Of a DNA stretch of 24,832 bases, positions 15,001 through 21,000 are shown piece after piece. Position 1 is the first letter of the stretch. The number at the start of each line of letters is the position of its first letter. The stretch lies in IMG/VR virus record IMGVR_UViG_2724679239_000003; one strand, written 5' to 3'. Position numbers: made by a program. The DNA is from a virus. Lineage: Duplodnaviria > Heunggongvirae > Uroviricota > Caudoviricetes.

Positions 15001-18000
15001 ATCATCCCATGCATGATATTTTTCTGCCCCAATAATCTCATGAGCTTTATTTTGTACTTTCTGACCGCCTGCGTCGGGGCCAACAACACCTATGTCAGTA
15101 CCTAATCGATAGCGAATCCAGTCATTCGCAAGGGAGTTCCATTCAATACCAGTGTGAGTGTATGCACTAAAAGCTCTGTCTCCAGTTACAGCTGTGTTGT
15201 GTCTTTTATTACTGCCTGATGGAGAGTAAATATCTTGCGCAATATGGAGAGATAATTGGCTCGAGTCTGAGATATCGTGGCTATATCCCAGAAATAAGCC
15301 TTGTGAGTAATCATCTCTGTTTTCATGTTTATTGCCATAAATATCATTAAGTATTGGTTGAAACTTCCCTGCATCATCATTTGCTAATGATAATGTAAGG
15401 CTGTTCGCGATAGCTGAACACGTGGTAAATGACAGAGCAATAAAGACGCCAGCGATGACACTTTTTTTCATATGTTATTGTCTTCCTTTTTTTTGAATGG
15501 TGCGCGTATTTTACATACGTGAGTTTGTAATACAAGGTGCGTAATCAATATGATGTTTTATAATTGCGTGAGACAATTGATTTATTCGTTTTTATTGTGG
15601 TTTTTTATTATCTTTTAATGTAACGGTGTTTTTATTAAGTGTGTTTGCGTGGTGTTTTATGTTTTTATAATTTTTATTTTATTAAATTTAAATGCATTAG
15701 TAATGGCTATTCTATATAGCAATATAAGAACTGTTACAAAAAAGGGGGGCAATTACAGGTAGTTATGGATGATGAGTGAAACAGATATTGGAGAACCGGG
15801 GAATGAATGATGTCTGAGTCTTATATATCAGAACTCCTTCGCTGTCGCTGGGGGCTCCTGTGCTTATGTCGTTTCCCCGATTCGGTTTTGAACGATTACC
15901 GAATGTTGAAGAATTATGCCAAAATATAGAAAGGATTTACTGCATGAATACCCAATATTTACAGTATGTTCGTGAGCAACTTATGGCAGCTACTGCTGAC
16001 TTGAACGGAGCAACGAAAGGCCAGCTCGAAGCCTGGCAGGAGCATGCACAATTTGATACTGGTACATACAAACGAAAGAAGCCGCGCATTCTGGATGTGG
16101 TAACTGGCAAGATGATTACGCTGGATAATACGCCGACTTCCGGTAAGCAGTCGTACGCAAAAGGTTCATCCATTGCTTTGGTCAGCCCGGTTGAATTCTC
16201 AACCTCTTCATGGCGCCGCGCGGTTTTGTCTCTCGATGAACATCAGAAAGCATGGTTGCTTTGGTGTTACAGCGAAAGCGTTCGATGGGGGCATCAGGTC
16301 ACCATAACGCAATGGGCATGGAGCGAGTTTAAAGATTTGTTAAGTAACAGAAAAATTGCAGGTAAGACACTGGATCGCCTGAAGACGTTAATCTGGCTGG
16401 CTGCACAGGATGTGAAGAGCGAACTTGCAGGGCGTGAGGCCTATGAATACCAGACACTGGCATCATTGGTGGGAGTGACAACAAAAAACTGGTCCGAGAC
16501 ATTTACTGAACGCTGGGTTGCAATGAAGCACATTTTTCTACAGCTTGATAGTGATGCTTTATTGCTTGTGACGAGAACACGTTCAAAACAAAAGGCAGCA
16601 TTTTTACAGCAAAATATTGCAAAACTGGATTAAAAGCCATATGCTTTATGCAAATTTGGTATGTTGTAAAAAATGTATAAACCCGCTGCCGAGTGGGTTT
16701 TTTTATGCCCTGAGTTGTACTTGTACGGTAAACATGCTGGCTGCTATGTGATGTTTTTTAGCCTGCATTCTCTTGACGACATTGAATTGCTTTTGCTATG
16801 AGTTGTGAGCCAAATGTTATCATCTTGTGTTGAGGTGGTTATGAAGGGTGGTGCACTACTCAGAGAGTCTTCGCTTTTTATTGCCTATATGGGATTTCTT
16901 GGGTGGGGGAGTGCTTATTTTTATGGCTGGGGCACTTCCTTTTACTACGGATTTCCATGGTGGGTTGTCGGGGCTGGTGCTGATGATGTAGCCAGAAGTT
17001 TGTTTTATGCTGTTACTGTTATTGTCATATTCCTGATGGGCTGGGGAATTGGTGTTGTTTTTTTTCTGGGTATTAAACAAAAAAATAATATGCAGGATTT
17101 GAGTTTTATTAGACTTTTTCTTGCGATACTACTGCTTTTTGTTCCTCTCGCTCTGGAGTTTTCAGTAATTCATCAACAGTTTGTACCAGATGCACTGATA
17201 TTGTGTATTATTTCCGCATTAATAATTACATTGTTTATCAGATTAAGTAGGAGATTTATTTCTATTAAATGTATTGCAGAAGTGTCTTTTATTCGTCATC
17301 ACAGGATTGAGTGTGTTATGGTCGGATTTATGCTTTATTTCTGGGCATTTTCACTTATTGCTGGTTGGTATAAACCTCAGTTTAAGAAAGAATATCAGAC
17401 TCTCTACTATGAGAATATCTGGTATTATGTTCTTGCTCGTTATGATGATCGTTTGGTGTTATCCAGATCGTTCAATGATAGCAGTAAAAATTTTATCATA
17501 TATAACATAGGACGTACTGATAGCTTTGAGATTAATGTGGTTCGAGTACGCTAAAATATCCTTGGAGTAACATAGGTGTTGCTTTTTTGATGGCAGACTG
17601 CATATTGTTATTGAATTGTAATCAAAGCATAGGAGTGAATCAGGTTTGTCATGGGGGGATTGCAGCCTTTGTTAGATATGATTATCATTCCTCGCTCGGC
17701 CCTTTAGCTCAGTGGTAAGAGCGAGCGACTCATAATCGCCAGGTCGCTGGTTCAAATCCAGCAAGGGCCACCAGCCGTCACTAGCTCATCAGGAAAGAGC
17801 ATCAACTTTCTAAGTTGAGTGTGCGAGGTTCGAGTCCTCGGTGACGGTCCAGTGCCGACTTAGCTCAGCAGGTAGAGCAACTGACTTGTAATCAGTAGGT
17901 CACCAGTTCGATTCCGGTAGTCGGCACCATATGCGGGCATCGTATAATGGTTATTACCTCAGTCTTCCAAGCTGATGATGCGGGTTCGATTCCCGCTGCC

Positions 18001-21000
18001 CGCTCCAGATTCATAATCAGGTTCGCTTCGGCGAGCTTTTTTTATATATGTTCGCCCGATGCATATCAACAAAATCTCCTGTGTGGGGAGTTTGTGGAGT
18101 GATAGGTGTGATTTTCTGTGTGGGTAGATTGCTTTTGGGAGCTGGTACATCCAAACAAAGGTGCGTCGCAATGTCCGGTATCTTGGGTAAAAAGTTTGTA
18201 AGGATGCAACTCTTTAAAAGCGGGAACTGACTCAGATGGTAATTAACGTGCCTTATTTGGTTATCTGTACGGATGGTAAGGTTGACCAGGAAGAACGAAA
18301 GATCCGATAAGTGATTGCCAGAGTATTACCACTTCTTGTGCGCTGGATTGTGACATTATTGTGGTCTGAGATAAAAATCGGTATAAGTAATGCTTGATTT
18401 TTTCATTGGATGTTTATTAAAAAGAGTGTCGTATGGTGAGCTTTCTTGCTCGTGGGACATCGGTGTAGGTATGTGGAGCTGTGACATCGATCGAACTCAC
18501 CGCGAGAGACACCATACATATATCCTAATGTTATTCCATATTATCTTCATTCCTGTTATTGCAGGCTGCGCATCGCGCAGCTTTTTTTTTATTCAGATTG
18601 CAAAGAGATGATTATTCTGTACCTTTTCTGCTCTGTTTTGTGTCGTTATCCGTGCTTACGGGAGAAGAATGAAGATTAGTAAATAAAGTATTATCCCTTG
18701 GCAATTGACGGTGTGATCGTGGTGGGGGAGGCACGAATCGCTCTACAGTATCGTAATAAAAAAACGCCAGTACAGAGGGTAATGGGAAAATAAATCTGCG
18801 CTGGCGGAGGAAGGCCCTCAGTGGAGAAGCTATATATTAATTTCTTTTTTATTTGATAGTAATAGTAATTGTCAAGCATATATTCCTATTGATTAGGATA
18901 TATTGTTATCAACCTTATACTGATTTATGTATACGCCATTGCGAATAATATCTATTTTATTGTAGATATAATCGTTATACATGGATTTTTATACAGATAA
19001 CCTGATAACAACTTTGATAATAAAATCAGTGTAATAAATAAGCCTCTACTCAATTGTTGATGCGATGAAGGGGGGGGCTGTGCTCTGAAAAAGTCAGTAT
19101 GTACGGGAACAGAGACTCTTCCTAAGTTTTAACCGGAAAATATTTCAATTGGATATGCTTATATTTGGTTGGTGTTGACGATTATGCGAAATCGTCAACA
19201 CCGGTCCGATAATAGGATACCTGGGGCATCAGTAATTAACTGGTGGCTTTTTATTGTTGTCAACTTCCGGATAACGGGAGACGGGGTATGTACCAGATGG
19301 AAAAAATCACAACAGGTGTGTCATACACCACGTCAGCGGTGGGGACGGGATACTGGTTACTGCAACTGCTGGACAAAGTCTCCCCATCCCAATGGGTGGC
19401 AATAGGCGTGCTGGGTAGTCTGGTGTTTGGCCTGCTGACGTACCTGACTAGACTGGCCCCCTGAATCTCCAGACAACCAGTATCACTTATTTAAGTGATA
19501 GTCTTAATACTAGTTTTTAGACTAGTCATTGGAGAGCAGATGATTGATGTCTTAGGACCGGAGAAACGCAGACGGCGTACTACACAGGAAAAGATCGCTA
19601 TTGTTCAGCAGAGTTTTGAACCGGGAATGACGGTCTCCCTTGTTGCCCGGCAACACGGTGTGGCAGCCAGCCAGTTATTTCTCTGGCGCAAGCAATACCA
19701 GGAGGGAAGTCTTACTGCTGTGGCCGCAGGAGAGCAGGTCGTTCCTGCCTCTGAACTTGCTGCTGCCATGAAGCAGATTAAAGAACTCCAGCGCCTGCTC
19801 GGAAAAAAAACGATGGAAAATGAACTCCTTAAAGAAGCCGTTGAATATGGGCGTGCAAAAAAGTGGATAGCGCACGCGCCCTTATTGCCCGGGGATGGGG
19901 AGTAAGCTTAGTCAGCCGTTGTCTCCGGGTGTCGCGTGCGCAGTTGCACGTAATTCTCAGACGAACCGATGACTGGAAAGATGGTCGCCGCAGCCGTCAC
20001 TCAGATGATACGGATGTGCTTCTCCGTATACACCATGTTATCGGAGAGCTGCCCACGTATGGTTATCGTCGGGTATGGGCGCTGCTTCGCAGACAGGCCG
20101 AACTTGATGGTATGCCTGCGATCAATGCCAAACGGGTTTACCGGATCATGCGCCAGAATGCGCTGTTGCTTGAGCGAAAAACCGCTGTACCGCCATCGAA
20201 ACGGGCACATACAGGCAAAGTGGCCGTGAAAGAAAGCAATCAACGATGGTGCTCTGACGGGTTCGAGTTCCGCTGTGATAACGGAGAAAAACTGCGAGTC
20301 ACGTTCGCGCTGGACTGCTGTGACCGTGAGGCACTGCACTGGGCAGTCACTACGGGCGGCTTCGACAGTGAAACAGTACAGGACGTAATGCTGGGAGCGG
20401 TGGAACGCCGCTTCGGCAACGAGCTTCCGGCGTCTCCAGTAGAGTGGCTGACGGATAATGGTTCATGCTACCGGGCTAATGAAACACTCCAGTTTGCCCG
20501 GATGTTGGGGCTTGAACCGAAGAACACGGCGGTGCGGAGTCCGGAGAGTAACGGCATAGCAGAGAGCTTCGTGAAAACGATAAAGCGTGACTACATCAGT
20601 GTCATGCCTAAACCAGACGGTTTAACGGCAGCAAAGAACCTTGCAGAGGCGTTCGAGCATTATAACGAATGGCATCCGCATAGTGCACTGGGTTATCGCT
20701 CGCCACGGGAATATCTACGGCAGCAGGCCAGTAATGGGTTAAGTGATAACAGGTGTCTGGAAATATAGGGGCAAATCCATATCCAGCAAAGTTCACCGTT
20801 ATGGCTAACCAATCAGCAAAGCGGTTGTAGTGTTCTTATTGTTCGCCATGGATTATCAGAATCTGGAGAACAGCAGTATTCAATGATACATATGCGCCCA
20901 AGGGATAGTAACGATTTCGTCGATGAGTTTACGCCAGCGCTTTACGCTAATACTCAGGAGATTTTGCTGGAGAGGGATATTCAGCGTACTCTTGCTAACA

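Follow-up and report, generated by a model that had tools for sequence, protein, structure and literature searches.

Why does a prophage that appears to have lost its lysis and morphogenesis genes carry a compact array of four tRNA genes, and how does this array relate to the tRNA arrays already known from lambdoid phages? This question is raised by the IMG/VR virus record IMGVR_UViG_2724679239_000003 (Caudoviricetes), a stretch of 24,832 nucleotides (nt), hereafter called the window. Judged by its sequence, the window is a lambdoid, 434/Shiga toxin (Stx)-phage-like prophage in an E. coli-like genome. The array lies on the late-operon strand, in the late-operon moron slot between the antiterminator gene Q and the lysis cassette. 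The best-supported reading, and a probable one in our opinion, is that it raises the supply of low-copy tRNAs for ATA, AGA/AGG, ACA and GGA codons, a function that we infer from a codon match, i.e., from a correlation. The array and its predicted signals are the following:

17660-17688, + strand: sigma-70-like promoter of the tRNA operon (alignment with five relatives)
17698-17773, + strand: gene 1, tRNA with anticodon CAU, Ile2 type, ileZ homologue (ARAGORN; Rfam 72.5 bits)
17775-17851, + strand: gene 2, tRNA-Arg (UCU), argN-type body, rare allele (ARAGORN; Rfam 53.5 bits)
17854-17929, + strand: gene 3, tRNA-Thr (UGU), copy of host thrU (ARAGORN; Rfam 72.2 bits)
17933-18007, + strand: gene 4, tRNA-Gly (UCC), copy of host glyT (ARAGORN; Rfam 64.8 bits)
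18019-18045, + strand: intrinsic-terminator-like hairpin with an 8-bp stem and a UUCG loop, then T7 (terminator scan, folding)

ARAGORN identified exactly four tRNA genes in the whole window, all on the + strand. Their E-values with the Rfam tRNA model (RF00005, gathering score 29) range from 2e-14 to 4e-9. Direct reading shows that all four genes encode their CCA end and that they are separated by spacers of only 1, 2 and 3 nt. The array is confirmed as four genuine tRNA genes. The preliminary description of the window, made by reading the sequence, had already recognized the anticodons CAU, Arg-UCU, Thr-UGU and Gly-UCC, a packing of 1-3 nt and a terminator behind the last gene, all of which hold; the Thr and Gly genes were both accepted by the prediction software, with no low scores. 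A permissive Rfam search of 16600-19500 retrieved the four tRNAs and sub-threshold antisense or chance matches, and revealed no extra RNA genes or tRNA remnants. Minimum free energy (MFE) folding proved to be a weak test of tRNA quality, since genes 1 and 3 give no MFE cloverleaf although each is only one base off ileZ and the functional thrU, respectively.

What could these four tRNAs be used for? Codons were counted in 28 phage genes and in six cargo genes of the window, namely lpxR, the open reading frame (ORF) starting at 16805, two nleG genes, nleA and the ORF starting at 20883. Two sets served as controls: 48 annotated K-12 genes and, from the APEC O1 prophage with its copy of the same array, 24 late genes. 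The summed frequencies of ATA, AGA, ACA and GGA, with the G+C content (GC) of each set, are:

K-12 sample (48 genes), 53.2% GC: 15.6 per 1000 codons
APEC O1 prophage late genes (24), 52.5% GC: 38.3 per 1000 codons
Early and regulatory phage genes of the window (28), 47.9% GC: 58.6 per 1000 codons
Cargo genes of the window (6), 39.8% GC: 96.7 per 1000 codons

The nleG genes and the NleA-like gene use the four cognate codons most heavily. When the 61 codons are ranked by their cargo/host ratio, the first five ranks are occupied by AGA (15x), ATA (11x), AGG (7x), ACA (4.9x) and GGA (3.6x), i.e., by the four Watson-Crick cognates of the array and by AGG, the wobble codon of Arg-UCU; the chance that four random codons would all fall within the top five is about 1 in 100,000. 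The claim that the anticodons match codons favored by the AT-rich cargo genes is borne out by this comparison. In the phage genes, the four cognate codons rank 1, 4, 5 and 8. It had also been suggested that the tRNAs may support translation of the cargo: the codon correlation agrees with this suggestion, but a specificity for cargo does not stand, since the phage genes also use these codons much more than the host sample (58.6 versus 15.6 per 1000). In K-12, thrU, glyT and argU are single-copy genes, whereas ileX/ileY are present in two copies. Therefore, a prophage copy would approximately double the dosage of thrU, glyT and argU.

The array also appears equipped for its own expression. In the window, the -35 hexamer TTGCAG (17660-17665) is separated by a 17-nt spacer from the -10 hexamer TATCAT (17683-17688), whose end lies 9 nt from the first base of the first tRNA. 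In 118 of 124 related loci, a set that comprises Stx-phage arrays too, the -10 hexamer (TATTAT or TATCAT) is kept in register, as is the -35 hexamer (TTGCAA, TTGCAG or TTGCGG) in 116, while the sequence between the hexamers varies by lineage. The counts of related loci given throughout (110 to 126, depending on the gene) rest on the matches listed; the degenerate pattern of gene 2 has at least 120 matches in IMG/VR. Since the hexamers are conserved while the spacer diverges, the predicted promoter looks like a working one and not a merely inherited one, and 17660-17688 probably has promoter activity. At the other end, the terminator hairpin, at 18019-18038, starts twelve bases past gene 4 (-10.4 kcal/mol, z = -3.29; none of 200 shuffled sequences folds as well). 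With its own promoter motif and its own terminator, the array would form an independent unit, which the lysogen could express. Furthermore, its position suggests read-through by Q-modified polymerase on induction.

The mechanism that we propose can be summarized as follows. The four genes would be transcribed as an operon from their own sigma-70-type promoter up to the intrinsic terminator. This would add four low-copy tRNAs decoding ATA, AGA/AGG, ACA and GGA, codons that core E. coli genes seldom use but that are frequent in prophage genes and most frequent in the AT-rich cargo. The own promoter would permit a supply of tRNAs in the lysogen, and read-through of the Q-modified late transcript would add tRNAs on induction.

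Where do the four genes come from? The comparisons point to a mosaic, in which genes 1 and 2 are members of the Stx-phage ileZ/argN lineage and genes 3 and 4 are copies of the host genes thrU and glyT. Gene 1 is identical to the ileZ gene of an Stx2a phage at 75 of 76 positions and to K-12 ileX at 68 of 76, with a compensated 6-67 pair. Its acceptor stem (GGCCCUU/AAGGGCC) retains the pairs C4-G69 and C5-G68, which are determinants for TilS, and its homologues are annotated as tRNA-Ile by the NCBI pipeline. The "Met" label given to this gene by ARAGORN is the default of this program for a CAU anticodon and was rejected on the basis of the identity with ileZ and ileX and of the NCBI annotation. 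Gene 1 thus probably decodes AUA after lysidine modification of C34.

Gene 3, which had been described beforehand as thrU-like but divergent, differs from K-12 thrU by a single D-loop transition, U16C (75/76 identical positions), and its anticodon arm is identical. As for the Gly gene, its near identity with glyT was correctly perceived: gene 4 matches K-12 glyT at 73 of 75 positions, differing by a D-loop transition and by C31U, also a transition, which generates a U31-G39 wobble beside the intact CAG/CUG motif. The K-12 operon runs thrU, 8 nt, tyrU, 116 nt, glyT, 6 nt, thrT. The spacer TAT between the Thr and Gly genes of the window corresponds to the base following thrU plus the two bases preceding glyT, as a clean deletion of tyrU together with its flanks would leave it. 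Since three bases can be split in four ways, this spacer alone is weak evidence of capture (about 1 in 16 by chance). Two IMG/VR contigs, L022 and L075, are more telling: in both, thrU is followed by the 8-nt spacer of the host and by 35 nt from the start of tyrU, with 119 of 119 positions identical to K-12. As these contigs have retained a stub of tyrU behind the host spacer, the capture of genes 3 and 4 from the host thrU-tyrU-glyT-thrT operon with loss of tyrU, which had been proposed from the Gly gene, is directly supported by sequence for the array family. In both contigs (about 7963-8081 in L022 and 3163-3281 in L075, in array orientation), the break lies at the same place in the anticodon loop of tyrU, and the sequence beyond it is unrelated in each; this shared break looks like a recombination or integration breakpoint.

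The three Thr/Gly substitutions of the window are private to its lineage, as contig L093, which has the Arg allele, carries host-identical Thr and Gly genes. Elsewhere, the copies show changes of their own. In 16 IMG/VR loci (e.g., L010, L011, L013 and L048), the glyT copy carries C6T and G67A, a compensatory change in the acceptor stem, while C6T alone is found in one locus and G67A alone in two. Since the two changes compensate each other, at least some prophage Gly copies seem to have been kept foldable. In five other contigs (L035, L049, L061, L065 and L089), the thrU copy carries G35T, which converts UGU to UUU, together with A26G, and ARAGORN reads the array as CAU-Lys-Lys-Gly. From the sequences compared, this is a second switch to UUU in the array, independent of the first.

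The rare feature of the array is the Arg-UCU allele at position 2, which the preliminary description had missed. The body of gene 2 is of argN type (C1-G72, U73 and A20), aligns with argN over its full length and has the anticodon loop UUUCUAA. It carries A20 (D-loop GGAAA), C35 and U36, besides the canonical U33; A20, C35 and U36 are the identity elements of ArgRS. Gene 2 lies outside the argU sequence family but may be argU-like in function. The common allele of this gene, found in 120 of 126 occurrences (the window being counted), has the loop CCUUUAA, i.e., a UUU anticodon and C33, a base almost never seen at this position in tRNAs. Most copies of the common allele also have an A51-C63 mismatch, and the software calls them Lys-UUU. 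Compared to its relatives, the window gene has U4-A69 instead of a C-G pair, a compensatory double change, and A51-U63 instead of A51-C63. At its MFE, the window allele folds into a full cloverleaf (-27.2 kcal/mol, z = -2.97), which the common allele fails to form (z = -1.46); as genes 1 and 3 lack an MFE cloverleaf too, this contrast is no more than suggestive. Overall, the window allele looks functional and apparently better preserved. It is present in none of 5,426 complete E. coli genomes (best match 92%), and exact-pattern scans recovered it from two IMG/VR contigs and one metagenome contig, two of these three being the prophage of the window. By parsimony, with argN as outgroup, the anticodon would have changed from UCG (argN) to UCU and then to UUU with C33, and the window would hold the intermediate Arg state.

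It should also be emphasized that the "tRNA-Lys" which hundreds of E. coli genomes have in the same array is a tRNA of Arg type with a changed anticodon loop: its body contains A20 and is homologous to argN, and it has the loop CCUUUAA, C33, U73 and usually A51-C63 (e.g., L001 3094-3170, L002 3142-3218 and L006 2594-2669, among about 120 IMG/VR loci). In some lineages, this allele has an additional D-arm deletion or is no longer called a tRNA (PEC41). Its features are those of either a decaying pseudogene or an anticodon-switched tRNA.

The surroundings of the array bear on its possible role. The relevant features are:

14512-15471, - strand: lpxR, encoding an LpxR lipid A deacylase, a moron of 39% GC (Pfam), located just upstream of Q as in phage 434
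15860-16633, + strand: late antiterminator gene Q, Q82/DLP12 type (Pfam PF06323, E = 1.7e-91)
16679-16706, + strand: terminator-like hairpin directly 3' of Q, candidate tR' (terminator scan)
16805-17554, + strand: AT-rich ORF between Q and the tRNA genes, 249 aa, 36.7% GC (phrog_1521, E = 8e-85, function unknown)
19297-19448, + strand: class II holin gene truncated by IS2, 5' portion (94.8% identity with the beginning of the holin gene of phage 434)
19449-20779, + strand: IS2, with genes at 19495-19905 and 19863-20768 (NCBIfam IS2 TnpA/TnpB; end sequence from 19449)
21846-22481 and 22556-23200, both + strand: NleG-family effector genes, AT-rich cargo (Pfam PF06416)
23507-24832, - strand: NleA-like gene, AT-rich cargo (NleA annotation of the matching phage BP-4795)

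The region 13800-17097, which spans Q, is 96.7% identical to phage 434, where a terminator is annotated at the place equivalent to the post-Q hairpin at 16679-16700. The ORF at 16805-17554 has no match in Pfam or NCBIfam; its 5' third is 96.7% identical to a "putative membrane protein" gene of phage 434, after which the sequence diverges (72% identity over 17307-17503). Further upstream, Rfam identifies the lambda cIII thermoregulator at 5616-5674 on the - strand, and an ORF occupies the gam position at 5013-5309. No stx gene is carried by the prophage. IS2 sits after about 50 codons of the holin gene and is followed not by the rest of this gene but by the NleG/NleA genes. A sister metagenome contig (L134), 99.9% identical over 13441-19448, is devoid of IS2 and runs on into ORFs of the size of endolysin and lysis genes. 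Therefore, the window prophage reads as defective, its lysis and morphogenesis genes having been lost, probably in a deletion or rearrangement associated with IS2. Among the complete E. coli genomes, at most 42% of 14300-24832 is covered at a single place, and the host may belong to an E. coli lineage that is under-sampled or to a close relative.

Past the terminator, the 1.2 kb of AT-rich DNA at 18009-19240 contains no convincing ORF and has no Pfam or PHROG match, nor any match of at least 85% among the 5,426 complete E. coli genomes. A cargo gene that the tRNAs could serve was looked for in this segment and rejected, as only faint remnants (73-77%) of TerB-family and DUF3927 (tciB-like) genes were found. 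A second strong terminator-like hairpin is located at 18563-18583. Between IS2 and the nleG genes, a full-length Rfam match to the small RNA family IS009 extends over 21292-21490 on the + strand (179 bits, E = 3e-43).

Several points weigh against an increased supply of low-copy tRNAs as the role of the array. The host codon reference is a sample of 48 K-12 genes and not the true host. The loss of the lysis and morphogenesis genes makes a lytic-cycle role moot in this prophage. The promoter hexamers of the window match the consensus at only 8 of 12 positions, below the threshold of a simple promoter scan. Gene 2, with C1-G72 and U73, lacks the purine discriminator and the G1-C72 pair of E. coli tRNA-Arg, and its efficient charging by ArgRS is not assured. 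Lastly, the Thr and Gly genes duplicate genes that the host already has. Host-identical copies amount to 71 of 113 for Thr and 64 of 110 for Gly in related loci, and some of the Thr copies are changed at C56 or G57, universally conserved positions of the T-loop; such changes suggest that selection on the prophage Thr and Gly copies is weak.

One alternative, which we regard as unlikely for the window although plausible as an ancestral role, is that the array only helps the lytic cycle: late and lysis genes would be translated better after antitermination by Q, and the match with the cargo would be a by-product of shared AT-richness. In intact relatives (e.g., APEC O1 and strain 4/4), the array indeed heads the late operon, and the four codons are 2.5 times as frequent in late genes of the APEC O1 prophage as in the K-12 sample. 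However, the demand is 96.7 per 1000 codons in the cargo compared to 38.3 in these late genes, no late genes are left in the window, and a conserved promoter and a terminator of its own would make the array independent of the late transcript.

Another explanation, of similarly low probability in our view, is that the array is a neutral passenger, a small and harmless relic of mosaic recombination and gene capture with no meaningful effect on translation. Homology with the relatives ends 1 nt past the Gly gene, at a mosaic junction, and on the 5' side it extends beyond gene 1 by no more than 16-22 nt according to BLAST and about 40 nt according to the alignment. In many relatives, copies are damaged, gene 2 having C33, the A-C mismatch or the D-arm deletion and the Thr gene having changes at C56/G57, and in the window itself the 1.2 kb downstream is decayed and the holin gene is cut by IS2. 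Yet all four genes of the window are intact beside this decayed DNA. In gene 2, one stem change is compensatory and another pair has been repaired, C6U and G67A compensate each other in the Gly copies of 16 relatives, the promoter hexamers are conserved compared to their diverging spacer, and the tRNAs match the codons ranked 1 to 5.

A defensive role is doubtful. TOPRIM tRNases destroy host tRNAs, and the Thr(UGU) and Gly(UCC) copies could make up for such losses; P2 OLD, one of these enzymes, is triggered by lambdoid Gam. The strongest depletion by P2 OLD concerns Thr(UGU), Gly(UCC), fMet, Val(UAC) and Pro(UGG) (bioRxiv 10.64898/2026.07.10.737580), and ThrU is its primary lethal target (PMC12445682). 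It is striking that its top two targets are exactly the two host tRNAs that were captured, and the prophage has an ORF in the gam position (5013-5309). However, extra copies of the host ThrU give little or no rescue, which is provided only by phage variants whose CNG motif is altered or whose stem is shortened (PMC12445682; bioRxiv 10.64898/2026.07.10.737580). The anticodon arm of the window Thr gene is that of host thrU, with no change of the CNG motif or of the stem, and 71 of the 113 related Thr copies are fully host-identical. A simpler cause for the capture of this pair is that thrU and glyT are neighbors in one host operon, single-copy and limiting.

A broader version of this idea, equally doubtful, is that the array is a battleground with tRNA-cleaving defences, instead of or besides supplying codons, position 2 being an anticodon-switching locus (UCG to UCU to UUU/C33) and the Thr copy of five relatives having switched independently from UGU to UUU. 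If so, the common "Lys" alleles would be nuclease-resistant substitutes for tRNA-Lys and the window would keep the ancestral Arg state. Finally, the hypothesis that one or more of the four genes are pseudo-tRNAs, which could be drawn from the low score of gene 2 (53.5 bits), its C1-G72 and U73 and the A27-C43 mismatch of gene 1, was rejected and is very improbable, as ARAGORN calls all four, their Rfam scores are far above the gathering score, A27-C43 is also found in the ileZ gene of Stx phages and the Thr and Gly genes are within 1-2 nt of functional host genes.

A supply of tRNAs for the prophage genes, cargo included, thus remains the reading that we favor. Prophage tRNA arrays are one suggested route by which AT-rich acquired virulence genes could be expressed despite a host tRNA pool that is tuned differently. 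The unusually exact correspondence between the tRNA set and the codon demand of the cargo, combined with an own conserved promoter, makes this locus a clean candidate for testing the codon-supply idea. Furthermore, our survey shows how such arrays grow, fragments of a host tRNA operon having been captured beside older phage tRNA genes.

How unusual is the array when compared with known systems? It is one of the prophage tRNA arrays situated downstream of Q, which are known and frequent and for which the general picture is already established. Its four-gene layout had been set apart as unusual from the three-tRNA set of Stx phages, a distinction that does not hold: a 231-nt probe that runs from gene 1 across the junctions to gene 4 was at least 80% covered in 628 of the 5,426 complete E. 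coli genomes, and the order CAU-X-Thr-Gly is found in at least 98 of the 124 gene 2 occurrences among the related loci collected. A contig scan with one genome per species gave two matches and is uninformative on prevalence.

The ileZ-argN-argO array of Stx phages (Stx2a_F349, AP012530; features taken from the GenBank annotation) occupies the same slot downstream of Q, in the same orientation and with the same promoter hexamers, and its ileZ+argN span is 88% identical to genes 1 and 2 of the window. However, its argN reads UCG whereas gene 2 of the window reads UCU, and its argO (Arg-UCU with a body of its own) has no homologue in the window, where Thr(UGU) and Gly(UCC) occupy positions 3 and 4. 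In Stx phages, the slot is filled by ileZ-argN-argO and stx, whereas no stx follows the window array. Arrays annotated as "Ile-Lys-Thr-Gly", known from numerous E. coli prophages (APEC O1, strain 4/4 and ST131 strains) and from phages vB_EcoS-689R5 and PhiR47_1, share the positions, the 1-, 2- and 3-nt spacers and the promoter with the window, with 91-96% identity. They differ at gene 2, which has CCUUUAA and A51-C63, compared to UUUCUAA, U4-A69 and A51-U63 in the window. Compared to the K-12 thrU-tyrU-glyT-thrT operon, the window keeps the order thrU then glyT but lacks tyrU, about 200 nt of spacer and thrT, and its promoter is that of the phage arrays and not that of the host operon.

Smaller sets are known from other lambdoid phages. 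SfI, Sf6, ST64T and phage 21 carry one or two tRNA genes (Asn-GUU, Thr-UGU) downstream of Q, for which a codon-compensation argument based on an ACA bias has been published (PMC3636060). Compared by their published description, these genes occupy the same slot and include Thr(UGU) but form a different set. Another comparison concerns the tRNAs that resist OLD or PARIS, i.e., the Thr-UGU of T4, T5-like phages and HK446 and the Lys-UUU of T5. Like genes of the window array, they are phage-borne copies of host tRNase targets, and the UGU anticodon is shared, UCC being the anticodon of a further OLD target. However, the anticodon stem of these resistant tRNAs differs from that of the host, whereas in the window that of the Thr gene is unchanged and that of the Gly gene differs only by C31U.

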